A stretch of DNA of 64,000 bases from Longimicrobiales bacterium. Its GTDB lineage: Bacteria; Gemmatimonadota; Gemmatimonadetes; Longimicrobiales; Gaopeijiaceae. The notes below the pieces were generated by a model that saw only the letters and a program-made list of their open reading frames with translations, searched no databases and had not been told where the DNA came from. Each line of letters begins with the position of its first letter. Position 1 is the stretch's first letter. A program made the translations under genes and the position numbers. The DNA lies in the NCBI GenBank assembly GCA_965248195.1, contig CBDFIQ010000001.1:1312001-1376000 (forward strand). The letters are read 5' to 3'. Below are positions 39,674-55,371 of this stretch, piece by piece.

Positions 39674-39743
39674 GACGGATAGAGCCAGGGAGTGGCCGCT
39701 TCCGTTCTGGAGTGAGACTGTAAGGCGGGTGGTGGTGGAGTAG
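39674..39743 (+). repeat. About 70-bp element, inverted partner of 42672-42745
   Basis: Identical 20-bp core CCGTTCTGGAGTGAGACTGT at 39702-39721 and (reverse complement) 42694-42713, with similar flanks. Confidence 0.75.
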
Positions 39744-39980
39744 TCCTTGATTCTGAGGGTTTGCAGATTATGCCGCTGCGTGCCGCCCCTTGGTCGTCCT
39801 CGGACGAAGACGTCAAACGTCACCTCGGGGGGACAACGACCTTCTTCGCACCGGCAGAACAATGCCTAATTGGGTAACAGGTCTCGCAAGAACGACCGGC
39901 ACGGCCTTTGCTTAACGACCCAATGCGGATCCTGCATCAGCGGCTGTGTAGAATCACAGATCGACTAGACGGGGGTCATC

Positions 39981-42474
39981 ATGGGTCTCGATAAACGCCA
40001 CGTTGGAATAGTCGGAGTCCTATCCGTCGCTACAGTGTTGGGCCTCGTCGATGCGAGGCCGGCGCATGCGCAGGACCAGGCCGGCCTGGCGGAGCCCGCG
40101 GTGCCAGAGAAGGCGGGCAAGGAGCTGCGAGCGTACCGGATCACCGGGAGCTCGCCTCAGATCGACGGCCGCTTGGACGAGGAGGTCTGGGCAGCCGCCG
40201 ACGCCATCGACGATCTGGTTCAAAATGAACCCGACAACATGGAGCCGCCGACCGAGCGCACGGTGGTGCGGGTGGCTTACGACGAACGCTACCTCTACGT
40301 GGCGGTCTACTCCTACATGCGGGAACCGTCGCAGATCACCACGGGCCTCGGCCGGCGCGACAACCTTCCGCCGAGCGACCAGATTCTGCTCACTTTCGAT
40401 CCCCGCCATGACCATCTCACCGCCTACACCTTTACGACGAACCCGTCGGGGGTGCAGCTCGATCGCACATGGTTCGACGACAACCGTTCCAGCAACGACT
40501 ATAGCGGGGTCTGGGAGGTCGCCACTCAGATCACACCGGACGGGTGGACCGCCGAGTTCCAGATTCCTTTCTCGCAGATGCGGTTCGATGTGCCACCGGG
40601 CGATGAGATGGTGTGGGGCTTCAATGTGCGGCGGAACCTCTACCGCCGCGGTGAGTTCGACCTGTGGGTCCCCACCCCGCGAGGAGCGCAGGGGTTCGTG
40701 TCCCGGATGGGTCACCTCGTGTTCGGCGACCGGCTGTCGCCGCCGCGCCGCGTAGAGTTCCTGCCCTACACGTTCGTCCGACGTGAGGATCTGCCTACAA
40801 CGAGCCGGGAGCATGGAGTAGATGGCGGCGTCGATCTCCGCCTCGGGCTGGGAACGGCGGCCACGCTCTCGGCGACGATCAACCCGGACTTTGCGCAGGT
40901 CGAGCTGGATCCGGCGGTCCTGAACCTGACGGTCTTCGAATCGTTTCTTTCCCGAGAAACGGCCCTTCTTTCTGGAAGACAGCAGGACGTTCCTGCTTCA
41001 GTACCGCCAGTTCCCCGTGTTTCACTCACGTCGGATCGGGCGACGGCCGGGCCGGTTCTCACTCGAGGATGGCGATCGCCTCGTCGACCAGCCCGACCAG
41101 ACCACGATCGTCGGTGCCTCGAAGGTGACGGGCAAAGCTGATAGCTGGACCTACGGTGTGTTAAGTGCGCTGACCGCACGCGAATACGCCACCGTGGACG
41201 CGGTGACGGTCGATGGCGCCGGTACCGAGACGGTGACGCGGCTCGACCGATTGATCGAGCCGCGGACCTCCTACAACGTGGCCCGGTTGCAGCGGGACAT
41301 CCTCGGCGGCTCATCGAACGTCGGTGCGATCGCCACGGCGGTCGTGCGGGAACAAGACGCCGATGCGCTCACCGGCGGCGTCGACTATAACCTCCGCTGG
41401 GGTCGTAATCTTTTCACGTGGGACGGTCACTGGGTGGCGACGCGAGCGCCCTTCACGGACGGCCAGCGCACCGGGTTCGGCGGCGTCACGCGCTTCAACT
41501 ATTTGGGAAAATACGTCGGGTTCTTCGGATTCTTCAACCACTTCAGCCCCAACTTTCAGAACAGGGATCTGGGTTTCAAACAAGGTCGGGTGGACCAGAC
41601 CGTCGCAAACGGGGGAATCGCCTTACGTCAGCCTGATCCGTGGGGGATCTTCCGACGTATCCAACTCTTTGCGGGCGGCGGAGGTAGCTGGAACGGCGAG
41701 CGCATGGCCTTGGGCAGCTTCGTCAGCGCCAGTCTGTCGGCGCAGCTCCGAAACTTCTGGCAGATCAACGCCTTTGGCACTCGCATCTTTCGGGCGCTGG
41801 ACGACCTCGATACCCGCGGCGGGCCACCGATCGTGAAGCCGGCCGAGACATTTCTCGGCTTCAACGTGGGCACCGACACCCGCAAGAGCTGGCGGGTATT
41901 CATGAACGTTTTCGGCAGCCGCGACGAGGAAGGCGGGTGGAACGCACAGATCGGGCCAAACCTTACGCTTCAGCCATCGGCACAGCTTCAGGCGTCCGTC
42001 AGCATGAACTACAGCTTTGGCAAGGACGTCGCGCAGTGGGTCTCCAACGAGGACGTGAACGGAGACGGTGAGACGGATTATGTTTACGGGCGGCTCCGGC
42101 GGGACGTTATCAACGTCACCGGGCGCGCGACCTACGCGTTTCACCGCGACATGACGCTCGAGGTCTTCTTGCAGCCGTTCGTCGCAGTCGGCCATTACAC
42201 CGACATCAAGCGTCTCGCGCGTCCCCGCTCGTTCGAGTTCGAGCCGGCGACCATTCCGTTCAATCCCGACTTCAATCGCAAATCACTCCGCGGCAACATC
42301 GTCTTGCGCTGGGAGTATCTGCGCGGAAGTACGCTCTTTGTCGTCTGGAACATGTCGACTTCTGACGATGCGCGTCCTGGCGAACTTTCGCCTCTCCAAG
42401 ATTTCGGCAGCGCCTTCAGGGCGGACGGCACCCACGTCTTCATGATCAAGCTGAACTACTGGCTCGGTCTGTAG
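39981..42474 (+). pseudogene. DUF5916/CBM9-like secreted or outer-membrane protein with a +1 frameshift at about 40944-40950
   Basis: IDGRLDEEVW, GWTAEFQIPFSQMRF, TINPDFAQVE; the motif FESF-FPEKRPFFLE is split across frames by one extra base. Confidence 0.8.
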
Positions 42475-42671: not shown

Positions 42672-42745
42672 TTACGTAGCAACCACCCACCGCACAGTCT
42701 CACTCCAGAACGGCATCGGCAACTCCCGAGGCTCATCCGTCTCGA
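42672..42745 (-). repeat. About 70-bp element, inverted partner of 39674-39743
   Basis: Encodes TDEPRELPMPFWSETVRWVVAT* vs TDRAREWPLPFWSETVRRVVVE*. Confidence 0.75.
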
Positions 42746-42844
42746 CTTCGAATTCCTCATTCTCAGCCATCATCTTGAGGAACCATGCGTGCGCCTCACG
42801 GGCTGTGTGGTACCCCTGCCACACCAAGTCCGCTTCGGGCTGGG

Positions 42845-43411
42845 TCAGTCCTCGTCCGCGACGGCTTCCGCGTCGATCGTGATGTACACGGTGTCGCCGA
42901 CGACGACACCCCCCCGGTCGATCTTGTCGTTCCAGGACACTCCGAAGTCATGGCGATTGATCTCTGTCTCGGCCAGGAATCCGGCCCGCAGCTTCGGGCC
43001 CTTGTTCACCCATTCGCCGTCCACTTCCTCCCACCATGGCGTCGGCCAACTCCCCAGGTAGCTGACTCGGAGTGGCACTTCATGGGTCACGCCTCGGATC
43101 GTGAGATCACCTCTGACCAAAAAGTCATGGTCTCCGATGATCTCCACACGATCCCCCTCGAACGTGATTTTCGGATGTGACTCGACGTCGAGGAAGTCCG
43201 GAGCACTCAGGTGCACGTCCCGCTCCTGGTCTCCCGTCCAGATGCCCGTCGCATCGATGACCGTCTTCACCGACGACCGCTTCGGGTCGGCCGGGTCGAA
43301 GTCTAGCGTCCCGTGCACGTTCTTGAAGGAGCCTCGCACCCATGTGACCATCATGTGCCGCGTGCGGAACGCTGCTGCTGTGTGACCCGGTTCGAATGTC
43401 CACTTCGTCAT
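42845..43411 (-). CDS. YceI family protein
   Basis: WTFEPGHT..F..RHMMVTWVRGSF, RDVHL..DFLD, GDLTIRGVT, INRHDFG; AAGGAG RBS. Confidence 0.9.
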   Translation of the reverse strand: MTKWTFEPGHTAAAFRTRHMMVTWVRGSFKNVHGTLDFDPADPKRSSVKTVIDATGIWTGDQERDVHLSAPDFLDVESHPKITFEGDRVEIIGDHDFLVRGDLTIRGVTHEVPLRVSYLGSWPTPWWEEVDGEWVNKGPKLRAGFLAETEINRHDFGVSWNDKIDRGGVVVGDTVYITIDAEAVADED

Positions 43412-43548
43412 TGCATACTCCTTTAGGTGGTTGCGCAGCACCAAGGCTGCGACCGCTGGATACGATCGGCAGTCGAGCAGGTCGCAGACTCCCCACGAGC
43501 ATTCCTATGCTACCCTCGATAAAACGCTGATGCGCGGGCGGTCCCCGC

Positions 43549-44694
43549 TCAGGAGATCTGGACCATCGTTTTGCCAAAGTTCTCGCCGCGCAGCATGCCG
43601 ATAAAGGCGTCCACGGAGCTGTCCAGCCCGTGGGTGACGCTCTCACGATACTTGAGCTTGCCCTCTTTGATCCAGCCCGACATGGTTCGCAACGCCTCGC
43701 CGGCGTCCGGTTGCCGAGCAGCAAGCTCGAAAAAATGGAAGAATCGGAACCCCTCGGTGGAGCCCTCCTCGCCGAGGTCCTTCAGCCCCGCCTCGCGCAG
43801 CCGCTGAAGCGGTGTTGCCTGTTGTTTTTCCCACGGTGCGTTGTTCCTGGCGAGGTTGTATTGGCTCACCCAGCCTGCTACCGGCACGCGGCAACCCGGG
43901 TTCAGCAGCGGGATCACCGCCTCGAGCACTTCGCCGCCAACATTCTCGAAGTAGACGTCGATGCCATCGGGCACGGCAGCCGCCAGCGCGGTGGGAAGGT
44001 CGCCGGCCTTGTAGTCGATGCAAGCGTCGAAGCCGAGCTCGTCGACGACGTAAGCGCACTTCCGAGGCCCGCCGGCGATGCCGACCGCCCGGCAGCCGTG
44101 GATTTTCGCCAACTGCCCGACGACCTGTCCGACCGCACCGCTGGCCGCGCTCACGACCACTGTCTCCCCCGCCTTGATGGTGGCCACGTTGAGCAGGCCG
44201 ACATACGCGGCGTAGCCGGTCATCCCCAGGATGCCGAGCCCCGTAGACGGTGGGCCGAGAGAGCCGTCCCACTTCTCGATGGGCATCGCCTCGTTGCCCC
44301 ACTGCAAATCTTCAGGTGTGCCGACACTGTATTCTTGCCATCCGTAGTAACCCACGACGAGGTCGCCCTCACTCCACCCGTTTGCTCGGCTCTCCACCAC
44401 TTCCGACACGGTGCCACCCACGATGGTGGAGCCTACGCTCCGCTCGTTGTTCATGGCGCCGGAAGCGTCGAGGCCGCGCATGTACGGGTCCAGCGTGAGC
44501 CACTTGGTGTGGAGCAGCATCTGACCCTCGGCGATGGGCGGAACCTCCGCCGTCACCACCTCGAAATCGGAGGGCTTGGGCTCGCCCTCCGGAGTCCTCT
44601 TCAGCACGATCCTGCGATTGACGACCCCGCCGCCTCGGGCACGGTCTTCAACTGGCTCGATCGCGAGTTCTTGTCGCGTCCTGAGTCTGTTCAC
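43549..44694 (-). CDS. NADP-dependent oxidoreductase (CurA/prostaglandin reductase-like MDR)
   Basis: LDPYMRG, LGMTGYAAY.GL, VSAASGAVG, DVYFENVGG, GENFGK; GTG start inferred from GGAGG RBS. Confidence 0.9.
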   Translation of the reverse strand: MNRLRTRQELAIEPVEDRARGGGVVNRRIVLKRTPEGEPKPSDFEVVTAEVPPIAEGQMLLHTKWLTLDPYMRGLDASGAMNNERSVGSTIVGGTVSEVVESRANGWSEGDLVVGYYGWQEYSVGTPEDLQWGNEAMPIEKWDGSLGPPSTGLGILGMTGYAAYVGLLNVATIKAGETVVVSAASGAVGQVVGQLAKIHGCRAVGIAGGPRKCAYVVDELGFDACIDYKAGDLPTALAAAVPDGIDVYFENVGGEVLEAVIPLLNPGCRVPVAGWVSQYNLARNNAPWEKQQATPLQRLREAGLKDLGEEGSTEGFRFFHFFELAARQPDAGEALRTMSGWIKEGKLKYRESVTHGLDSSVDAFIGMLRGENFGKTMVQIS

Positions 44695-44708
44695 GGTGTT
44701 TGCCTCCC

Positions 44709-45083
44709 TCAGGCGTGCAGATGGAAGACCTTGTTCATGATCTTCCACTCCCCGTCGACTTTTAGCAGCGTGAACAGGTCGGTGTACCGGGAACCAGTCC
44801 AGTTGTCGAGCTCAAGCCGCACGGTGGCGACCGTGCCATTGACGTCGATGCCGGCGATCCGCGCCTGGAGCTCCGTCGCGGGACCGTTCTCGTCGTTCCA
44901 GGCAAAGAGCTGCTGGATGGGGCCGGCGAACAGGTCGGAACCGACATAACCGAAGATGGTCGCGTCCTCGTGGAAGGCGGGTTTCATGTCGTCGCCTCGG
45001 CCGGATTTGGCGCCATCGATGTAGGGCTGGATGGCCTCTGCGATCGCGCCATGTTCAGTCAGGGTGGTAGTTGCAGTAGTCAT
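44709..45083 (-). CDS. NTF2-like / putative lumazine-binding family protein
   Basis: YIDG...MKPAFHEDA, YTDLFTLLKVDGEWKIMNKVF. Confidence 0.85.
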   Translation of the reverse strand: MTTATTTLTEHGAIAEAIQPYIDGAKSGRGDDMKPAFHEDATIFGYVGSDLFAGPIQQLFAWNDENGPATELQARIAGIDVNGTVATVRLELDNWTGSRYTDLFTLLKVDGEWKIMNKVFHLHA

Positions 45084-45144
45084 GGGTTTCACTCCTTATT
45101 TAGTGGTGTAAACATCGTGTGTTGTGCGATAGCGGTTATCGCAT

Positions 45145-45363
45145 CTACCACTGTCGCCCTCGATCGACACGTACCAGGTCGGGCAGAATCGGCGCAGCGT
45201 CGTTCGCCATCCTGCGAAACGTCCGAGCGATGTGGAGATCACCTTGCCGCTCTGCCCGTCCCGCGACGCTGAGGAAGATCTCGATTTTCCTATCGGCCGG
45301 GATGATTGGTGCGTCCAGGCCGCGATGGCCTTGCCTGGTGGTCCCGTCTACGATCGTCGCCAT
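45145..45363 (-). CDS. Small hypothetical protein, first gene of the leftward sigma54 operon
   Basis: AAGGAG RBS; lies just downstream of the sigma54-like promoter. Confidence 0.5.
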   Translation of the reverse strand: MATIVDGTTRQGHRGLDAPIIPADRKIEIFLSVAGRAERQGDLHIARTFRRMANDAAPILPDLVRVDRGRQW

Positions 45364-45409
45364 TTGCCTGTCTCCTTATCAGCTCTAGGGGCGTTTCCCT
45401 TGTCTATAG

Positions 45410-45424
45410 ACAAGACGCATGCCA
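45410..45424 (-). promoter_or_regulatory. sigma54 -24/-12 promoter (leftward)
   Basis: TGGCATGCGTCTTGT vs consensus TGGCACG-N4-TTGC. Confidence 0.65.
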
Positions 45425-45522
45425 CGTAATCCGAGCGCCTGAAAATGGCCCTAATTTGTTTGACTGCTGTTAGTTAGGAGAGGTCGCGTACGCGAGAGTC
45501 CCTAGCGGTTTTGGGGTCGCTA

Positions 45523-45556
45523 CCTCCGAGATTTCGTATGGGGCACGAAATATTGC
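45523..45556. promoter_or_regulatory. Putative upstream activator site 1
   Basis: CCTCCGAG-ATTTCG-N9-CGAAAT-ATTGC. Confidence 0.7.
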
Positions 45557-45786
45557 GTCCGAGGATGCGGGACGGCGTGCGCGGGCACCCGGCAGTCATT
45601 CCTACGCGGCTATCAGCGTGGTGGATCAGGCGTTGGCGGTCTGGTGTGGTTCCTTACTTGCGTTCCACAGCGTAGTATTGCCAAGTAACCCGGGGGGGAG
45701 GAGCACCCCGATCTCTCCGATTGGGAAGTCACAACGCCTTGCTAGAGAGATGACGTGTACATTGCCGATGACGCAGGTAACGTTTC

Positions 45787-46395
45787 ATGAATGATCGGAT
45801 CAGTTTCGGTTTCGGGAACCTGTACGTGTCCACCAGCGACCACATCGCGCACTTTTATCGTAGCGATGAGGAATGGCTCGAGTTGGCCACCGGTTTCTTC
45901 CGCGCTGGGCTGCAATCGGGGGACAAGTGCGTTTGCGTCCTCAGGCCCGGTAACCGGGAGCGAGAGCTGAAGCAACGTCTATCCGGCGACGGAGCACCAG
46001 TGGACGCCGCGCTGGCCTCCGGCCAGTTCACACTCTTCGAGGGCAGGGACGAACCGCGCCTGATGCAGGACGAGCTGACAACGGCCCTCGCGGATGTTCC
46101 CGGCCGCTATCCGCTGCTGCGCTGGGCGGGCGACATGAGTTGGTCGTTGGAGCAGATGCCCGACTCGGAAAAGCTCATGGAATGGGAATCGCACTGCAAT
46201 ACGGTAGAGAGTCCGCCCGCCGTATTCCTTTGCCAGTACGATCTCAGGGCTTTCCTCGGTAGTGTGGTCATGGACGCCATGAATACGCATCCACTGTGCG
46301 TGATTGGGGACGCCATCCATCAGAATCCGTACTATCAGACGCCGGAGGAATTTCTGGCGGAAATGAACCGCCGCTCTCCGACGGCCCAAGCGTAA
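45787..46395 (+). CDS. MEDS (methanogen/methylotroph DcmR sensory) domain protein
   Basis: DHIAHFY, LRWAGDMSW, LCQYDL..F....MDAMNTHP, NPYY. Confidence 0.85.
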   Translation: MNDRISFGFGNLYVSTSDHIAHFYRSDEEWLELATGFFRAGLQSGDKCVCVLRPGNRERELKQRLSGDGAPVDAALASGQFTLFEGRDEPRLMQDELTTALADVPGRYPLLRWAGDMSWSLEQMPDSEKLMEWESHCNTVESPPAVFLCQYDLRAFLGSVVMDAMNTHPLCVIGDAIHQNPYYQTPEEFLAEMNRRSPTAQA

Positions 46396-46410
46396 CACAC
46401 GTCTCGTCCC

Positions 46411-48699
46411 ATGACCCTCGACCCAATACCAGGCCCCACCGCCGCGCTGGACTTAAAGGACCCGGTATTACGATTCCTGACCGTCATCTCCGAGGTGGGG
46501 GGGGACGCCGAGCGGGCGCGCCTCACGGCGACAGCGATTCCTGCGGCGATCCCGTGTACGCTATGTGGAGTGGCGCTACTGAACGAGGCCGTGGGATCAT
46601 GGAGCCTTGCGCTGGTTCGTGACGGGGCCCTCGTTGACAACACCCTTTCAGTTTTGACGCCAGTGTTCGACTCGGCGTTCGACGCTCCGGCTGTGGTGGT
46701 CAGTGGTAAAGACGGCGACACCCCCGAACCCACCGCCTCGGACGCGATGGCGCAACTGGGCGTGCGCGGACTCGCCGTGGCACCACTCAGGACGCTCCGC
46801 CACCGGGTGGGAGCGATGTTCGTCGCCCGGCAGGGTGACGCATTTTCCGAGGACGATGGCGTTCGTCTGATGTCGTTGGCTGAGTGTGCCTCCATCGGGT
46901 TGGAGAACGCGCACCTCAGTGAGGAGCTCAAGCGCACGGCCGATCAATACAGTGCTCTCTATCACAACACCCCCGTCATGATGCACTCCGTCGACGACGA
47001 CGGAAAACTGATTCGCGTGAACGACTACTGGCTGAGCGTGTTGGGGTACGAACGGCAAGACGTACTGGGGAAGAGCTCGGCTGATTTTCTTACCGAGGCC
47101 TCGCGGAGAACCCTGGTGGAGGTCGTGTTTCCCCAGTTGCGGAAGTCCGGCCAGGTGCGTGACGTCGAGATTCAAATGGTTAAGCGCGACGGTACCATCC
47201 TCGACATCCTGGGCTCGGCGGTGGCACAGTTTGGCGACCATGAGCGAATCGAACAAACGCTGGCTTTCTTTGTGGACGTCACCGAGCGCAAACGCGTCGA
47301 AGCCGCCCTACGGGAAAGCGAAGAACGCTTTGCCGGCCTCTTCCGGTCAGCGATGGACGCCATTGTCATTGTCGACCTTGCCGGCCGGATTATGCAGTTC
47401 AATGATGCCGCCGAGACCGTATTTCGCTGCGCGGCTAGTGAAGCGACGGGGGAGCGCTTTCCCCAGCGCTTCGCAGCCGACGAGTTTCGGCGGATTCTCG
47501 AGGACTGTTTGCGTGAGCGCAAGGGAGATGAAATCACACGCCGATATCTGGTCGCCGCCGGCGGTCTGACGGCCCTGCGCTCTGACGGCGAAGCTTTTGC
47601 TGCTGAGGCGACTATCTCTCAGGTCGATATTCCGGGCGACCCGCTATTTGCCATCATTCTGCGGGACGTCGACGATCGGAAACGCGTCGAAACCGAAATC
47701 CGTCAACTGCGCCAACAATCAGATTATCTCAAAGAAGAGATCAAGACGCATCACAACTTCGAGGAGATCGTCGGCGACAGCCCTGCGCTCCGGAGGGTGC
47801 TCCGATCCGTGGAAACCGTTGCACCAACTTCGGCCACGGTGCTCATTCTCGGTGACACAGGAACCGGCAAGGAGCTCGTCGCACGGGCTATCCACGATCT
47901 CAGTCCGCTTCGCGACAAACCGCTCGTGAAAGTGAATTGTGCCGCGCTGCCTGCCGGTCTCGCAGAGAGCGAACTCTTCGGACACGAAAGAGGTGCCTTC
48001 ACAGGCGCCGTCGCACGAAAGATCGGGCGTTTCGAACTGGCGGACCGAGGGACCATCTTCCTGGACGAGATCGGTGACCTCCCGTTGGATATGCAGGTCA
48101 AGCTGCTCCGAGTGCTTCAGGAGGGTGAGTTCGAGCGGATCGGCGGCACGCGCACGATGACGGTCAACGTCAGAGTCATCGCCGCTACGAACCGGGATCT
48201 CAAGCAGGCTGTGACAGACGAGCGCTTTCGTTCCGACCTCTACTACAGACTCAATGTTTTTCCCGTCACGATGCCCTCGCTTCGGGATCGGAAAGAGGAT
48301 ATCCCGGTGCTCGTGAGTTACTTCGTCGACAAGTACGCGAGAAGGCTCGGCAAGCGCATAGATACCATAGCTGATGGTGTCTTGACGGCTCTGCTCGCAT
48401 ATGAGTGGCCGGGTAACATTCGGGAGCTGGAAAACGTGATCGAGCGGGCCGTTATTCTGACGCCGGGTGCCGCCCTGGAATTTGGCGGCTGGCTGATGGA
48501 AACCGGAGCCGCTCCCAATAATGAAACCGGGATGCTGACCCTCGATGAAGCGCAGCGACAGCACATCATCAAGACCCTCGACTTGACGCGTTGGCGAGTC
48601 GGTGGCGAAAGGGGCGCCGCCAAGCTCCTGGACATCAAAGCGACTACGCTTGCATCCCGAATGAAGAAGCTCGGCATAGAACGCCCGGATTCCCGCTAA
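46411..48699 (+). CDS. sigma54-dependent enhancer-binding protein, FhlA-like (GAF-PAS-PAS-AAA+-HTH)
   Basis: [72 protein letters not shown]. Confidence 0.93.
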
Positions 48700-48840
48700 T
48701 CCGGCGCCGCATCCCCGAACCACCGCCGCCGCGCCACCGCCGCCACGTCACCACCGCCGCGCCATCCTCTGCCCCCGGCGTTCGCTGCTGGATTCAATAG
48801 GCTCCATCGCATGATGGGCCGGTCCCTGACCCGGGTCGAG

Positions 48841-48877
48841 CCTCCAACATTTCGAACACGCAACGAAATATTGGAGG
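48841..48877. promoter_or_regulatory. Putative upstream activator site 2
   Basis: CCTCCAACATTTCG-N9-CGAAATATTGGAGG, 14-bp arms with one mismatch. Confidence 0.75.
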
Positions 48878-48973
48878 TTTTTGTGAACCGTGGCCGCTCT
48901 CCTTGGGTCGAGCCTCTCGGCTAATCCCTTACAACACAAAGACTTGGCGGTTTTGAGCGGCCAGGATCTACCG

Positions 48974-48988
48974 CGGCACGCCTTCTGC
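48974..48988 (+). promoter_or_regulatory. sigma54 -24/-12 promoter (rightward)
   Basis: CGGCACGCCTTCTGC. Confidence 0.7.
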
Positions 48989-49073
48989 CAATAGGGGACG
49001 TATGTCGAGATCTACCGGCTCGACATCCATGTGGCACCGAGGCACCGGTGAAACCAGTCGTAGGAGTCATGTC

Positions 49074-49370
49074 GTGCTGCGCATTACGAAGGTCGAGAGA
49101 AGAACCGGCTCAGTAACGTTGATCGTCGAGGGTCCGATTACATCTGAGGATGTAGCCCTGCTGGAACTCGACTGCGTTCGCCTACTCCAGGCCGGCCGCC
49201 GGGTGCGATTGGATCTTGCCGACGTGGACTTCATCGACCACACCGGGGTTGCGGCGCTGAGAGAGCTCATGGCCCGCGACGTCGAGATCGAAAGGACCTC
49301 CCTGACCGTGGAGAGATTGTTGACGAGGGTCACCCGCAGCAATCGGCTGCGCTGCTCTGACCAACCCTGA
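49074..49370 (+). CDS. STAS-like domain protein
   Basis: VRLDLADVDFIDHTGVAAL; GTG start after AGGAG. Confidence 0.7.
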   Translation: MLRITKVERRTGSVTLIVEGPITSEDVALLELDCVRLLQAGRRVRLDLADVDFIDHTGVAALRELMARDVEIERTSLTVERLLTRVTRSNRLRCSDQP

Positions 49371-49386
49371 ATCAATGGAGATTCCA

Positions 49387-49896
49387 ATGAACAGTTTGAA
49401 CCTTTTCAACCGAGTAGGCACCGCGGCCGGTCGGTGGGGCATCGTGTTTTTGCTCTTGTGGATCGGCACTTTCAAATTTTCGGCATTCGAAGCGGAGGCC
49501 ATCCGACCCCTAGTGGAGAACAGTCCATTCATGGGCTGGCTCTACGCTGTGTTGAGCGAGCGGGCGGTCTCAATCGTCATCGGGAGCAGCGAGATCGTGG
49601 TCGCGTTGGCAATAGCTTCGCGGCGCTGGTACCCGAGGGTGTCATTCTACGGGAGCCTGGCCGCGGCCGGCATCTTCCTCGTCACGCTCAGTTTCTTCGT
49701 GACGACGCCTGGCACGCTGGCGACGGTTCCGGGCTACCCGCTTCCTGTGCCCGTGGGACCCGGATTCTTCCTGATCAAGGATCTCATCTTGTTCGGGGCC
49801 GCTTTGACGATGGCGGCAGAGGCGGGCAAGACGGCTGCCGTCGTTACGTCGCAGCCCTCGATCGGCGCCGGGTCACCGGTCGCGAAGGCCGCGTGA
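49387..49896 (+). CDS. DUF417/YkgB (RclC-like) inner-membrane protein
   Basis: WIGTFKFSAFEAEAIRPLVENSPFMGWLY, TLSFFVTTP, FLIKD. Confidence 0.85.
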   Translation: MNSLNLFNRVGTAAGRWGIVFLLLWIGTFKFSAFEAEAIRPLVENSPFMGWLYAVLSERAVSIVIGSSEIVVALAIASRRWYPRVSFYGSLAAAGIFLVTLSFFVTTPGTLATVPGYPLPVPVGPGFFLIKDLILFGAALTMAAEAGKTAAVVTSQPSIGAGSPVAKAA

Positions 49897-49967
49897 GTGA
49901 CTCGCAACGAGCGCTCACCGGTGCAGAAAGTACACACACCAACATCCTCAAAGGAGATATACACATC

Positions 49968-50501
49968 ATGAAGACGATAATTTTCCTCGCACTCGCCGGG
50001 GCAGTTCTGACCACCATGCTGGACAACGACGATGCTGTTGGCTACGCGCTGAACGATCTAGAAATGGCTCACGTCACGGTGATCGCAAGCAACATCGACA
50101 TCGGGTACGCACACCTTGCGTTGGCCCTCTCCGAGAGCCCGGACATCCGGGAGTTTGCCGAGACGATGATTCGGGATCATTCCGCCGTCAACGAGCAGGT
50201 GTTCGCGCTCGCCGACAAACTGGGTATTACGGCTCAGGACAACGAGATGAGTCGCCTCCTTCTGGCACAAGCAGAGGAGATCAAGGATGAGTTGAGCCAG
50301 TTGCGTGGCGGCGCATTCGACAGCCGCTACGCCGCGAACGAAGCAGCCTACCACCAGATGGTAAACGGTGTCGTGCAGAACGATTTCATCCCCAATGTGG
50401 TGAACCCTGAAGTGCAGGCTGCGTTCAAGGGTGCCCTTTCGATCTTCCTGGTTCACCAGGAACACGCGGAAGAGCTCGAACGTCAGTTCGGGCCGATGTA
50501 A
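49968..50501 (+). CDS. DUF4142 domain-containing secreted protein
   Basis: AAGGAG RBS; signal peptide; FAETMIRDH, FDSRY..NE..YH. Confidence 0.8.
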   Translation: MKTIIFLALAGAVLTTMLDNDDAVGYALNDLEMAHVTVIASNIDIGYAHLALALSESPDIREFAETMIRDHSAVNEQVFALADKLGITAQDNEMSRLLLAQAEEIKDELSQLRGGAFDSRYAANEAAYHQMVNGVVQNDFIPNVVNPEVQAAFKGALSIFLVHQEHAEELERQFGPM

Positions 50502-50864
50502 ATGAGACGAAGCGCAAGGACGTTGTTAGTCGCATGCACGATGCTCCTAACGGTCTTTGGTTTGACGGGAGTCGCCCTCGCCCAGGCGGGCGGGGCGACC
50601 CCGGCAAACGCGACCCATGTGATCGACATCCGGCAGCTGCGATTTCAACCCGCCGTATTGACGGTGGTGCCAGGCGACACGGTGGTGTGGATCAATCGAG
50701 ATATCGTCCCACACGCAGTAAGCGCACTGGACGCCGAGTGGGAGTCGGAAGGCTTGATGACAAATGGATCGTGGCGGCGCGTGGTGACCGGGAAGGGCAG
50801 CGTGGAATACTACTGCACATATCACCCGACGATGCGAGGTACCATCCTCTTGAAGGGAGTGTGA
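50502..50864 (+). CDS. Cupredoxin (amicyanin/plastocyanin-like)
   Basis: Signal peptide; GDTVVWINRD.VPH and YYCTYHPTM type-1 copper ligands. Confidence 0.9.
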   Translation: MRRSARTLLVACTMLLTVFGLTGVALAQAGGATPANATHVIDIRQLRFQPAVLTVVPGDTVVWINRDIVPHAVSALDAEWESEGLMTNGSWRRVVTGKGSVEYYCTYHPTMRGTILLKGV

Positions 50865-50867
50865 TTC

Positions 50868-51518
50868 ATGTTTACAGAAACAAAGACGCGAACGCGGCTG
50901 CTCATCGCGCTTGCGGGACTAGGTTTGGTTACGGCGACGCTACCGTTGTGGCTAGGAGCACGCCCAGCATCTCAAATGACTGAGATCGAGCGAGCCCAGT
51001 TCACCAGCGAGGGTGAAGCCGTTCAACCTGATGATTGGCGGTCCTGGACGTTCATCGGAGCGCCGCTAACCCCGAATGCACTCAACGGCGGCGAAGCACC
51101 TTTCCCGGAATTTCACAACGTATACATCGAGCCAACGGCGTTGGAGGCCTACCAGATGACTGGACAGTTTCCTGAGGGCACTCAGCTCGCAAAGGAACTC
51201 GTCTCAGTGATCTCCGATGCCGCTCATGAGGACGGATCGACAGTGCAGGTGAGCGGTCGAGGCTATTTCCAAGGCGAATTTCAGGGCCTAGAGCTCGCTG
51301 TCAAAGAGTCGAGTCGTTTTCCGGATGAGCCCGGGGGCTGGGCATATTTCAGCTTCGGCCACCACCCGGAGCCATATGCAGAATCGGCCACTGCCTTTCC
51401 GACAGCCACTTGTAATGGGTGCCACCAGGCGAACGCCGCGCAGGATTGGGTATTCGCGCAGTTTTACCCCCTGCTGCGAGGGATCGAGTTCGGTACAAGA
51501 GCGATAGTTACCCATTAA
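50868..51518 (+). CDS. Cytochrome P460 family protein
   Basis: TPNALNGGEAPF, VYIEP, GTQLAKE, GYFQG..GLE.AVK, GWAYF, C-terminal CNGCH, VFAQFYPLLR. Confidence 0.9.
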   Translation: MFTETKTRTRLLIALAGLGLVTATLPLWLGARPASQMTEIERAQFTSEGEAVQPDDWRSWTFIGAPLTPNALNGGEAPFPEFHNVYIEPTALEAYQMTGQFPEGTQLAKELVSVISDAAHEDGSTVQVSGRGYFQGEFQGLELAVKESSRFPDEPGGWAYFSFGHHPEPYAESATAFPTATCNGCHQANAAQDWVFAQFYPLLRGIEFGTRAIVTH

Positions 51519-52159
51519 ACGACAGACTGGTGAGGTCCCGAATTAGGTCTCCGGAGTGAATGATTCCGTGGGGACATTGGTTCGGGGCCTCCTTGCAACA
51601 TACAGGAGGTGGTCATGTCTTCATCCACACCGGTCGCGACGACCGAGTCGATGTTTCAACCCGCTAAAGTGGGACGCAATAAGACGACTTCGCGTGCCTT
51701 CAGGGCCAGGCGCTTAACCGAGTTCTCGAGCCCTGGTACCTAGGGACGGCGAAGATGAACTCCGAAGTGCTGGTGGAGACTCTAGAATGGATCATGGATG
51801 GCATGCTGACACCGATTCGCCAGGAAAGGTTATTCAAGACGGACGCGTAGGGCCTGCCCTGGACTCCACCGATAGCAGGGGTGAGTCCCTCGAAATCCAC
51901 CGTGTTCCGACCGTATCCCGACTACAGTCCGACTGCAGTCCCACCGTAACCCCACCATTAACCCCACCGTACCCGGACCGTAGCGGTACCAACTACCGAC
52001 CTCACGCTTATCAGGCGCCTGAGTAGGGGTCGGAATCACGGCAGGATGCCGGAAAACCTAGATGGATCGCGCGATTTGCCGCCTTCGTGATTCTTCGATG
52101 CCGTGATCTGCCGGGTTCGATCGACAGGACAACCGACAGGACCGACACGCCGGTGATCC

Positions 52160-54976
52160 CTAATCGGCCCGCAGCGCTTCCGCCGGATGGACCCGGCTCG
52201 CCCTTCGTGCGGGCAGCCACGCAGAGGCGAGGGACACGATGATCAACACCACGACGCTTCCGGCTTGCGCACCGAACCCCAATCCATCAACCCCGCGGAT
52301 CCGGGACCCCAGAACCTCCGTAAGCCAGTAGGCGCCGATCAAGCCGCAGCCCGCCCCTATTGCTGCGAAGAATGCCGACTGCCGCAGTACCCTCGCAGCC
52401 GCGGCTTGGCGGGTAGCGCCGAGGGCTCGCCGAACGCCGATCTCTCGGGTGCGGCGTTGAACTTCCTGGGCGAACATGCCGAAAATGGCGGCGATGGCTA
52501 GCACCATCGCGACGATGGCGAAGCCCGTGAGGAGGAAAAGGTAAAAGCGCTGCGGTGCGATTCGCTCCAACCGGTACGACTCCAACGTTCTGGCCTGCGT
52601 TATCGCGATCAGGGGATCCACCTCCCAGACGGCGTCCTGAAGAGCTGTCAACGAGGGTGGTGCCGTAGGATCCGTACGAATGAGGAAGGCAGTCCGGTCT
52701 GCCCAGCCCACCATATCCTCCGACCAGAGTTCGGACCGCTGGTCGATCGGCACATAGACCGTCCTCGGGTTCTGCTCACCAGGCCCGTCGTGGGACACGT
52801 CTTTGACGACCCCCACGATCTCGGCCTGAATCGCCGGGAAATAGGGCGACTCTTCAAAATCGAAGATCTCTCCGAGCGGGTCGTCCTTCCCGAACCCGAA
52901 TTGCGCGAGAGACTCGTTCACGACGACGACGCGGGGTCCGCCCGCACGATCGCCGGGACCGAAGCCGCGACCCTTACGGATCTCGATGCCCAGTGTCCGG
53001 AAGTAGTTCGAGCTGACCCATTTGATGCGGTACCCCCTCGAGGGTCTCCTTGCTCTCGAAGAGGCGCTGTCTTCGGGGAAGATCTGCGCTTCTCGGTTCG
53101 GAAACGGCCGGAAGTACCCCGTGGGCCCCCAGAGTGGCGGGTTGTTCGCGTAAGCCACCTCTTCAACACCCGGTACCGCCCCGAGCCTGTCCGTCACCTC
53201 GTCGATGAAGGCCACATCGCGTGTGCCGATTCGGAACGCATTGGAGACCGAGAGCCATTCCCATTCGGGACTGAGAACCGCCCCAGCTTCGGCGATCGTA
53301 ATACCGGTAGATTGGGCGTATTGGGCTCTAGGGAGTCTCATGTAGAGAGAGGTCACGTCCTCCGGATCGAGGCCCGGATCCGTCGCGGACACACGGGCAT
53401 AGGTCTGGAGGAGCGCTCCCGCCCCCGAGATCAGAATGGAAGCCAGGGTGAGTTGGCCGACGAGAACGAAACCCCGACTTCGCCCCTCCCCGCTGATCGC
53501 CCCGTGAGCCCCCCGCTTGAGATCGCTCACGAGACTCAGCCGAGAAGCCTGGAGCGCGGGAAGAAAGCTGCTCACCACCCAGACTGCCCCCGCGAGCAAG
53601 GCGATCCCGACGAGAACGCGACCGTCCACTCCAGCCAAGTCGAGGCGGGGCACGTCCCAGGGCACCAGCTCCCTCACTCGGGGAAGAAGGACCACGGTGA
53701 TGGCTACAGCGGCGGCGGCCCCGATCCCCGTCAGAATACCGGCCTCGAGCACGAGCTCACGTGCCAGCCGAGCCCGAGAGGCGCCATACGCTGCCCTCAC
53801 CGCCAACTCGCTTCGCCGGCCCAGGGCGCGCGCCAGGAGAAGACCCGCCACGCTCGAACAGACCACGAGGAGGAGCAGACCCACGATTCCCGAGAGCATG
53901 AGAAGGTTCTCACGCCATGCACGTCCTTCGGCGTCCTTCAGCATGGGCCTCACGAGGGCCGTCAGTCCAGCTTGCGTGTCCGGATATGCTTCCGCGAGGC
54001 CCCCCTGTATGCGGTCGAGATCGGCATCTGCGTCCGCAATCGAGACGCCCGGCGCGAGCCGTGCGATCGGCCACAGATCGCCGCCATATGCCCGCCCGGT
54101 CCGGTCCGAGCCCATCGGGTCGTTGATGAAGACATCCCGCCTGGGGCCTCCCCAAAGGGGGAGGTCGAAGTAGTGAAATCCCTCCGGCATGACGCCGACG
54201 ACCTCCGCGGACCCCCCAGCGATGCGGAGTGTCCGTCCGAGAATAGCCGGGTCCGCACCGAAACGCGTGCGCCAGAAATCGTATGTGAGGACGGCTACCG
54301 TCGGAGCGCCGACCGCGTCATCCTCGGGGAGCACTGCCCGGCCCAGCCAAGGCCGCACGCCCACGACGTTGAAGAAGCTCGACTCGACGCGTAATCCGCC
54401 CACGACGTACGGGCGGTTCAACTGAAGGGTCATGGCGCGAGCTTGAGTGGCGGTGATGGCGGTGAAGCTCCGCTGAGACTCCTTCCAGTCCAGGTAGTCT
54501 CGCGGTGCGAGCGCTGGCGTCCTTCCGTCGGGCATCTCCTTCATCACGCTTACGACCCGGTGTGGATCGGGAAAGGGAAGTGGGCGGAGGAGGACGTGTT
54601 CCAGCACCGTCAGGACGGTGGCTCCGGCGCCGAGTCCCAACGCCAAGACTGTGACGGCGAGCATGGCCTGGTGCGGCTGTCGTACAATTCTCCGAAGCGC
54701 TGTTCTGAGATCATCCCAAAGTTCGATGCGCGCCTGGCGCCGAGTGTGGTGGAGGAGCCGGCGTTCGTTTTCGCGATAGCCTCGGTGTCGCCATCGATCG
54801 ACGTCGCCAAAGGCGTGAGTCGCCTTGGAATGGGCCTCCGCCTCGGAGAGACCCGCGGCGATCAGGTCTCGGACCTTGGCCTCGAAGTGGTGTGCGAAGT
54901 CATCGTCCACTTCCGCTCGAGCCTTGTCACGGGCGAACGGATTCCGAAACATCCTCCTGAGCTGACGCGGGCTCAT
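52160..54976 (-). CDS. ADOP-type duplicated MacB/FtsX ABC permease
   Basis: Permease prefix domain; two MacB_PCD and FtsX repeats (ELAVRAAYGA, EIGVRRALGA); ends PARRASRVHPAEALRAD. Confidence 0.9.
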   Translation of the reverse strand: MSPRQLRRMFRNPFARDKARAEVDDDFAHHFEAKVRDLIAAGLSEAEAHSKATHAFGDVDRWRHRGYRENERRLLHHTRRQARIELWDDLRTALRRIVRQPHQAMLAVTVLALGLGAGATVLTVLEHVLLRPLPFPDPHRVVSVMKEMPDGRTPALAPRDYLDWKESQRSFTAITATQARAMTLQLNRPYVVGGLRVESSFFNVVGVRPWLGRAVLPEDDAVGAPTVAVLTYDFWRTRFGADPAILGRTLRIAGGSAEVVGVMPEGFHYFDLPLWGGPRRDVFINDPMGSDRTGRAYGGDLWPIARLAPGVSIADADADLDRIQGGLAEAYPDTQAGLTALVRPMLKDAEGRAWRENLLMLSGIVGLLLLVVCSSVAGLLLARALGRRSELAVRAAYGASRARLARELVLEAGILTGIGAAAAVAITVVLLPRVRELVPWDVPRLDLAGVDGRVLVGIALLAGAVWVVSSFLPALQASRLSLVSDLKRGAHGAISGEGRSRGFVLVGQLTLASILISGAGALLQTYARVSATDPGLDPEDVTSLYMRLPRAQYAQSTGITIAEAGAVLSPEWEWLSVSNAFRIGTRDVAFIDEVTDRLGAVPGVEEVAYANNPPLWGPTGYFRPFPNREAQIFPEDSASSRARRPSRGYRIKWVSSNYFRTLGIEIRKGRGFGPGDRAGGPRVVVVNESLAQFGFGKDDPLGEIFDFEESPYFPAIQAEIVGVVKDVSHDGPGEQNPRTVYVPIDQRSELWSEDMVGWADRTAFLIRTDPTAPPSLTALQDAVWEVDPLIAITQARTLESYRLERIAPQRFYLFLLTGFAIVAMVLAIAAIFGMFAQEVQRRTREIGVRRALGATRQAAAARVLRQSAFFAAIGAGCGLIGAYWLTEVLGSRIRGVDGLGFGAQAGSVVVLIIVSLASAWLPARRASRVHPAEALRAD

Positions 54977-55329
54977 GATTTGACCCCGGCGGCCACCGAG
55001 GATACCGCACGCTCCATGGCTTTCACGTACCTCTCCCAGTATCGAATCTCATGGTTCAGCCGCTTGGAGCCGGCGGAAGTAAGTTCGTAGACCCTTGCGC
55101 GGCGACCCGTTTCCGTGCGAGACCAGCGAGACTCGATCAGGTTCTTCCGGTCTAACCGGTAGAGGGCTGGGTAGAGACTCCCCTCTTCGACCAGCAGTTC
55201 TTCGCCCGTAACCCCGTGGATCCACTTGGATATGGCGTACCCATGCATCGGTCCCAGGCTGACGGCCTTGAGGACGAGCAAATCCAAGGTACCGCGGATG
55301 ACATCCAGGCCTCGTTTCTCGTCGCTCAT
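54973..55329 (-). CDS. PadR family regulator (acidobacterial ADOP-associated type)
   Basis: GTLDLLVLK, MHGYAI, VEEGSLYPALYRL, RRARVYELT. Confidence 0.9.
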   Translation of the reverse strand: MSDEKRGLDVIRGTLDLLVLKAVSLGPMHGYAISKWIHGVTGEELLVEEGSLYPALYRLDRKNLIESRWSRTETGRRARVYELTSAGSKRLNHEIRYWERYVKAMERAVSSVAAGVKS

Positions 55330-55338
55330 CACCATGAC

Positions 55339-55371
55339 CATTAGAAACACCAAGGGTTATGGTTTCTAATG
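55339..55371. promoter_or_regulatory. Inverted repeat upstream of padR (candidate operator)
   Basis: CATTAGAAAC-N13-GTTTCTAATG. Confidence 0.55.

Follow-up and report, generated by a model that had tools for sequence, protein, structure and literature searches.

A MEDS protein and a GAF-headed sigma54 activator as a predicted split sensor for two flanking redox operons in a Longimicrobiales bacterium

What signal, sensed by which protein, switches two outward-facing redox and stress operons that flank a single pair of regulatory genes? The question arises from a locus at positions 42845 to 51518 of the window, the stretch of 64,000 nucleotides analysed here, from a Longimicrobiales bacterium of the phylum Gemmatimonadota (assembly GCA_965248195.1, contig CBDFIQ010000001.1). 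At its centre, meds (45787..46395, + strand) encodes a stand-alone MEDS protein, and 15 bp further on lies the gene for a 762-residue sigma54 enhancer-binding protein (46411..48699, + strand), the activator, recognised by Pfam, NCBIfam and residue motifs. An earlier note on this DNA described a self-contained, mobile sigma54 regulon for detoxifying reactive nitrogen, chlorine or electrophile species, and every gene and domain that it named is confirmed in place by the list of open reading frames (ORFs) and by Pfam. The interpretation that we favour on balance is that MEDS and the GAF-headed, FhlA-like activator form a split sensor, homologous to EtnR2/EtnR1, that likely switches both flanking operons upon a small electrophile or thiol-reactive compound. 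Below, L-numbers denote the MEDS/partner loci compared, P-numbers proteins, G000 the genome carrying the window (4.86 Mb, 91.8% complete, with rpoN) and G007 a congener.

The conserved unit, judged from gene order and domain content, is meds with a GAF-headed partner and not the whole cassette. We found 121 stand-alone MEDS relatives, mostly 44-60% identical. Ten of 38 metagenome loci were dropped for ending <250 bp past meds, and in 24 of the 28 informative loci the gene after meds begins with the partner GAF. The same pairing is seen in 13 of 17 loci outside profile building, counting one duplicate and one identical pair. The distances among MEDS proteins covary with those among the GAF domains (rho 0.81 over 20 loci; permutation maximum 0.45), which shows co-inheritance of the two sequences and is not proof of binding. 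Among 401 genomes of the phylum, G000 is the only one with a strong match to the MEDS or GAF profile; weak matches occur in three others for MEDS and in one for GAF. The co-occurrence search proposed in the earlier note has therefore a divided outcome, since meds with a GAF-headed partner recurs (the 24 of 28 loci above) and the full effector set does not. The suggestion that MEDS modulates the activator gains from this conserved pairing, which marks it as a putative dedicated partner. On one contig, some 14 kb separate two meds-activator loci (L029:9932-12070 and L023:9965-12763); one of the two activators is a PAS-AAA+ protein with a different helix-turn-helix (HTH) domain and without the partner GAF.

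MEDS is assigned to PF14417 with 119 bits against a cut-off of 29.8 and is the sole MEDS match in the genome. Its structure model (pLDDT 94) matches chains of the Elp456/FlaH/KaiC type with Z from 15.2 to 14, the best match having an rmsd of 3.0 (167-177 residues aligned), whereas its profile reaches KaiC among PDB sequences at no better than E 0.05. A Walker A motif (GxxxxGKT/S) is absent from the sequence. Pfam, the modelled RecA/KaiC fold and the missing Walker A thus indicate an inactivated KaiC-type protein, the label that MEDS also carries in the accessible text of PMC5847659 and PMC11507031. Three cysteines are conserved in the family: C48 in 114 of 115 aligned proteins, C137 in 112 of 118 and C149 in 120 of 120. 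Selenocysteine in this MEDS family is not supported, given that none of 120 proteins ends early at a conserved cysteine and a stop falls in the aligned stretch at 1 of 42 loci (L044).

The activator has the domains expected of a sigma54 enhancer-binding protein, with predicted Walker A (481), GAFTGA (528), Walker B (550) and arginine finger (607) motifs and a C-terminal FhlA-type (Fis-type) HTH. FhlA is its best NCBIfam model, at 412.8 bits under an equivalog cut-off of 830, so that it is not an FhlA equivalog. The first 180 residues match GAF below the Pfam cut-off (E 0.0018), and the fold of their AlphaFold model (pLDDT 80) agrees with that of solved GAF domains (best Z 15.8, rmsd 4.8 over 160 residues). 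This GAF sits at the extreme N-terminus in all ten strong full matches among P0130-P0285. What follows it varies (GAF, PAS or PAS-PAS), and it heads sigma54 activators in seven loci and histidine kinases in L041, L048, P0130 and P0193. When the profile was run against 1.84 billion representatives, multi-GAF proteins dominated, with 6 family members among the 150 matches listed. A search for MEDS fused to an activator gave one match in 8000 candidates, a MEDS-GAF-GAF-GGDEF protein whose GAF fits the partner profile weakly (24 bits), and we do not take it as evidence of fusion.

The sensor pair is homologous in both parts, by profile and alignment, to EtnR2/EtnR1, the epoxide sensor of mycobacteria that consume ethylene. 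It is the closest precedent and was overlooked in the earlier note, whose author recognised no described counterpart. Against plasmids, MEDS matched 23 records, including EtnR2 of Mycolicibacterium chubuense NBB4 (29.5% identity over 94%) and its Nocardioides JS614 counterpart. The partner gene starts within 10 bp after the MEDS gene in both (a 10-bp gap in NBB4), and EtnR2 reaches 142 bits on the MEDS family profile. Residues 22-165 of EtnR1 align with the partner GAF profile (hhalign probability 96.6%, E 6.5e-10), as does the JS614 protein (96.0%). A GAF of any kind may match in its tail, and the first 50 profile positions were therefore scored alone: family members reach 71-78 bits and NBB4 EtnR1 18.3, against at most 5.3 on 146 control proteins with 1390 ordinary GAF matches. 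The accessible text of the EtnR study (10.1101/2024.02.19.581074) reports that etnR1 and etnR2 are both required, that etnR1 alone gives no signal, and that the inducer is ethylene oxide, not ethylene. A Streptomyces EtnR1-like gene also adjoins a MEDS gene, in reversed order. That plasmid pair (L071:2740-5815) diverges from a general-stress gene and dnaK-grpE-dnaJ, a context of stress and not of catabolism.

Both operons have a predicted -24/-12 sigma54 promoter. The left one (45410..45424, - strand) reads TGGCATGCGTCTTGT, with a matrix score of 12.6 that ranks third in the window; the right one (48974..48988, + strand) reads CGGCACGCCTTCTGC and scores 9.6, and TGGCACACCCTTTGC stands at the equivalent position in L002. 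The -24/-12 pattern is not rare alone (with one mismatch allowed, 11.6 matches are expected and 11 are seen). Each promoter is, in addition, preceded by a predicted upstream activator site, the left at 45523..45555 and the right at 48841..48877, neither assigned to a strand. The right site is a palindrome with 14-bp arms and a 9-bp spacer. ATTTCG-N9-CGAAAT, a pattern picked after the sites had been seen, has exactly two copies in the 4.86-Mb genome, one per promoter.

An independent view of these sites comes from a de novo search for symmetric motifs in the stretch before meds (380 bp at most) at 20 other loci, with the window, L002 and three near-duplicates left out of training. The best motif was ACGAAATTTCGT, with a log-likelihood of 63 against 24-49 in five shuffles. 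Scored as a tandem pair, it places the left site (45525) first genome-wide (24.7), and two places in the genome, one of them the left site, passed a joint filter for site plus promoter. The tandem-pair ranking leads us to read each palindrome better as two degenerate ACGAAATTTCGT-type units 19 bp apart, as laid out at the left site. The units lie 109/128 bp (left) and 106/125 bp (right) from the -24 GG, and elsewhere the spacing is 109/127 in L026 and 125 in L002, where the right-type site keeps its arms with a different spacer and flipped orientation. Across 18 hand-chosen regions, the -24/-12 pattern occurs in 17 and units lie 40-220 bp away in 15. The promoter of L029 has no such units, and the activator there lacks the partner GAF and carries another HTH.

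The promoters and shared element described in the earlier note are thus real features, and the presence of -24/-12 sites, of upstream sites about 100 bp away (about 105-130) and of rpoN in the genome points to sigma54 control. With upstream sites at both promoters, the proposal that one sigma54 activator serves both operons is strengthened, and the activator very probably drives both. Two further sites were rejected. A candidate promoter for meds itself (45647) scores 8.5 and, among the loci checked, has a + strand counterpart before meds only in L024, where it serves P460. A perfect -24/-12 match at 39897 was set aside as a regulon member for want of upstream units.

The genes under these promoters change from locus to locus. 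In L002, where MEDS is 74% and the activator 70% identical to those of the window, the order is meds-activator-STAS-DUF417-DUF4142-cupredoxin, then SDR, Lumazine_bd_2, isochorismatase, a second predicted promoter, Lumazine_bd_2 and CurA, with a divergent old yellow enzyme (OYE) gene on the left. It alone shares the STAS-DUF417-DUF4142-cupredoxin series; left-operon genes have moved behind it, and no P460 match was found in its genome, so the full combination of the earlier note is not a conserved one. Among the 87 proteins scanned in the cargo survey are CMD/AhpD (L020); CMD/AhpD, peroxiredoxin, thioredoxin, tautomerase and OYE (L033); DoxX, isochorismatase and hydrolase (L027, L030); SDR with Lumazine_bd_2 (L028); and DUF417, FMN reductase and P460 (L024). 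NemA and RclC are members of electrophile and hypochlorite responses in the accessible text of PMC7464077, and the cargo families can therefore be read, by name, as an interchangeable electrophile/thiol-redox set. The detoxification theme of the earlier note is borne out to this extent, that effectors appear to change while an electrophile/thiol-redox theme stays. Its emphasis on reactive nitrogen is weakened because P460 flanks the pair at one other locus only (L024); P460 is peripheral to the conserved system.

Two observations concern cargo families elsewhere. Where plasmid Lumazine_bd_2 loci were opened, an alkene/flavin reductase and a TetR/LysR regulator adjoin in three of three (50 records matched). 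In L029 (13697-14254, also the start of L023), an AhpD/CMD-like ORF reads C-E-Y, then an in-frame stop with an open frame beyond, and is followed by DoxX and a GrdB-like gene; it resembles a CxxU selenoprotein in a sigma54-type operon.

In the mechanism we propose, MEDS, with a RecA/KaiC fold and no P-loop, would bind the signal or be modified by it, possibly at its conserved cysteines, and would then dock on the activator's N-terminal GAF, freeing the AAA+ domain. The activator, at its tandem ACGAAATTTCGT-type sites, would open both sigma54 promoters. The left operon would supply a cytoplasmic, reductase-type detoxification (CurA-like, NTF2-like, YceI) and the right DUF417, DUF4142, cupredoxin and P460, a set at the membrane and likely exported; the effector genes would be interchangeable cargo. 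That MEDS is a needed positive partner we regard as probable. That the signal is an electrophile or thiol oxidant, as cargo and EtnR2 would suggest, is an evenly balanced judgement.

Several points weigh against this mechanism. MEDS occurs without a GAF partner in 4 of the 28 loci (L019, L029, L037, L051) and, of three genome loci, in L003 (MEDS 54% identical) and L004. The activator's two PAS domains could themselves sense a signal. In the motif search, an A/T-tract motif reached a log-likelihood of 58, close to the 63 of ACGAAATTTCGT. The right site (48843) has the second-best tandem score of the window (16.1), lies outside the genome's top 25 and failed the joint filter by missing the promoter threshold. 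Some cargo is unrelated, as with Crp and Omp85 in L026 and an ECF sigma factor in L023. On the side of the precedent, the JS614 protein scores 5.6 on the first 50 positions, a background level, and the Streptomyces EtnR1-like protein aligns weakly (probability 21%). EtnR2, which keeps C48 and C149, is ~30% identical to MEDS and lacks H22 and C137, so the ligand may differ.

Three other explanations fit parts of these data. MEDS could be an anti-activator that keeps the GAF-headed protein off and releases it upon sensing, for which NifL-NifA and PspA-PspF are analogues. The pairing and co-inheritance data also fit such control. In the accessible literature, the archetype of MEDS proteins, DcmR, is called a repressor, and negative regulation of SigB by MEDS is hypothesised for actinobacteria. 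In the sole tested homologous pair, however, etnR1 alone gave no signal (10.1101/2024.02.19.581074, accessible text), which argues that EtnR2 acts positively, and we judge an anti-activator unlikely. It is also conceivable that the activator's own GAF and PAS domains do the sensing, with MEDS as an accessory tuner or co-inherited passenger: two PAS domains are present, the second sensor position is free to vary (GAF, PAS or PAS-PAS), and MEDS is found alone in the four loci listed above. Yet the first GAF is kept where the domains after it differ, and even where the output does, and a strong partner GAF is found in 0 of 400 other genomes of the phylum, which also lack this MEDS subfamily. Sensing by the activator itself seems to us a little less likely again.

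A regulon that responds to hydroxylamine or nitric oxide, and whose central products are P460 and cupredoxin, would account for the features of the window's P460, which retains the cross-link lysine and the distal carboxylate and stands beside a type-1 copper protein. The rarity of P460 beside the pair (L024 only), the nearest locus, L002, where a cupredoxin is present in a genome without a P460 match, and the genome's other P460, whose neighbours are a globin-like gene and a different activator, make this the most doubtful of the three, and we think it improbable. We accordingly keep the split sensor with MEDS as a positive partner as our preferred explanation.

Across bacteria, one kind of sensor pair seems to serve different outputs. 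A wider proposal, which we put forward tentatively and would not bet on, is that MEDS with its dedicated GAF is a general two-protein module that works without phosphorylation: a KaiC-fold protein lacking a nucleotide site, once small electrophiles have modified its conserved cysteines, would dock on the GAF and switch any fused output, be it a sigma54 ATPase (window), a PucR-type HTH (EtnR1) or a histidine kinase (elsewhere). If true, it would give a mechanism for the long-predicted MEDS domain and a sigma54 electrophile-stress regulon in sediment bacteria. Because one and the same partner domain precedes outputs of three kinds, it is most likely the surface on which MEDS acts, which makes MEDS signalling testable. 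Sigma54 activators would gain a further mode of control, through a partner protein, and genes that are under RclR and NemR in E. coli would have a sigma54 route as well; a swappable sensor of this kind would be of direct use for biosensors.

The left operon opens with a 72-residue ORF (45145..45363, - strand), its ATG preceded by a strong ribosome-binding site, AAGGAG. It belongs to no Pfam family, all its ESM Atlas matches are <0.9, and it has one weak paralogue, a short ORF at G000:C2:114516 (46% over 35 residues). A 35-residue helix-like stretch common to this ORF and to G000:C2:114507-114667 may mark a small-protein family without a Pfam entry. The next gene (44709..45083, - strand) encodes a Lumazine_bd_2 (NTF2-like) protein (PF12893), a family also next to the pair in L002 (two copies), L028 and L033. 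The gene at 43549..44673 (- strand; ADH_N_2 and ADH_zinc_N) encodes a CurA/PTGR-like NADP-dependent reductase, likely an enone/enal reductase, which scores 375.7 bits on the CurA model, under the cut-off of 440, and has a copy at 92% identity in L002. The operon ends with a yceI-like gene (42845..43411, - strand; PF04264, E 1.6e-44) whose start is preceded by a ribosome-binding site; among the neighbourhoods compared, YceI adjoins the pair in the window only. In sediment runs, 43335-45169, which covers the Lumazine_bd_2 and CurA-like genes, reaches up to ~100 times the contig depth of its neighbours at 85% likeness, so close copies must be common in other organisms.

The right operon opens with a gene for a small STAS-domain protein (49074..49370, + strand; PF01740); STAS also opens the sigma54-type operon in L002 and L026 and lies near the activator in L022/L023. 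It is followed by a DUF417 membrane protein of the RclC/YkgB family (49375..49896, + strand; PF04224), at 79.7 bits a family member below the RclC equivalog cut-off of 275, with relatives in L002 and L024, and by a DUF4142 protein (49968..50501, + strand; PF13628; 77% identical in L002). An amicyanin-like cupredoxin (50502..50864, + strand; PF00127) has the type-1 copper ligands H71, C105, H108 and M111, and a cytochrome P460 (50868..51518, + strand; PF16694) closes the operon. P460 has CNGCH at 182 (C182-H186); its K109 aligns with the cross-link lysine Lys106 of NsP460 and E142 with the distal carboxylate position 131. Both are found in hydroxylamine-oxidising P460s and have their roles from PMC11928373, and with the CxxCH motif they suggest an active enzyme.

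The locus is accessory DNA, not an established mobile element. No meds gene was found in 11 same-genus genomes, and in five of these DNA matches to the locus are confined to the AAA+ domain and short dispersed repeats; in G007, other genes follow the flanking DUF5916 gene. Close variants cover 30 of 30 bins of the stretch in two sediment/vent DNA runs, and RNA-labelled runs, with small shares and contigs only, show neither transcription nor operon structure. No integrase or transposase gene occurs among the 17 annotated proteins around the locus, no terminal repeats bounding it were found, the only tRNA is 31 kb away, and the best plasmid match of MEDS is 33%, with no close plasmid copy found. 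The word "mobile" in the earlier note thus fits the patchy distribution among kin, yet finds no mobility gene behind it. "Self-contained" is uncertain too: a further activator of the genome (G000:C2:3109632-3111284) has an HTH of the same type and lies beside another P460, so cross-talk is possible.

At that second place (G000:C2:3109632-3113835), an FhlA-like GAF-AAA+ activator and a thioredoxin-like gene diverge from a -24/-12 site, which precedes a truncated-globin-like gene and a two-domain P460 and has weak single units. The thioredoxin-like and globin-like names were given by inspection, and the whole is possibly a separate nitrosative-stress unit.

Around the locus, the DUF5916 gene (39981-42474) lies in two overlapping frames, with a break near 41017-41141, and is a single ORF in G007. 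A dispersed repeat with inverted copies around this gene (39674-39733 and 42682-42773) is common in congeners. Another, of 150 bp (51990-52145), occurs in full twice more in the genome and many times in congeners. In run X14, one contig connects 52084 with 42829, the shorter side of the join being 43 letters long; this is a weak hint that in a relative the left end is flanked by the repeat, or else that the unit can circularise. Immediately to the right, outside the locus, lie a PadR regulator and a duplicated MacB/FtsX permease (52160-55353).

How does the pair compare with known systems? FhlA is the best NCBIfam model of the activator and is likewise a GAF-headed sigma54 activator, and the half-site ATTTCG/CGAAAT is that of the FhlA site in the text where it is quoted. 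It differs in that the activator of the window has a GAF-PAS-PAS input, its half-sites are 9 bp apart and those of the quoted FhlA site 2, and hydrogenase and formate genes are absent at the locus of the window. We know of no MEDS partner of FhlA. DcmR shares the MEDS domain, for which our model has a RecA/KaiC fold; it carries its own HTH and acts alone according to the accessible text of PMC5847659 and PMC11507031, whereas MEDS of the window is without a DNA-binding domain. The RclR-rclABC and NemR-nemA/gloA systems resemble ours in their targets, with DUF417/RclC family members in the window, L002 and L024 and a NemA-like OYE in L002 and L033. RclR and NemR, however, are one-component cysteine sensors of the AraC and TetR types (PMC7464077, accessible text), as opposed to a two-protein sensor with sigma54.

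No paper on a pair of MEDS and sigma54 activator was found in the literature searched (supplements outside its scope). In the accessible texts, the role of MEDS as a sensor is a prediction, EtnR2/EtnR1 is the one two-protein case put to the test, and no mechanism is described. The output of EtnR1 is of the CdaR/PucR type in a genome (NBB4) without RpoN, that of the window an AAA+ GAFTGA sigma54 activator with a Fis-type HTH; the Etn targets lie in alkene/epoxide catabolism and in the synthesis of coenzyme M, those of the window are detoxification-type genes, in so far as the accessible text covers them. That text places the GAF of EtnR1 at 135-285, whereas the domain in common with the window is 22-165, which bears no annotation there. 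In both systems, the MEDS gene stands alone directly ahead of its partner, MEDS and the first domain of the partner are homologous, and two divergent promoters are predicted under one pair (10.1101/2024.02.19.581074).

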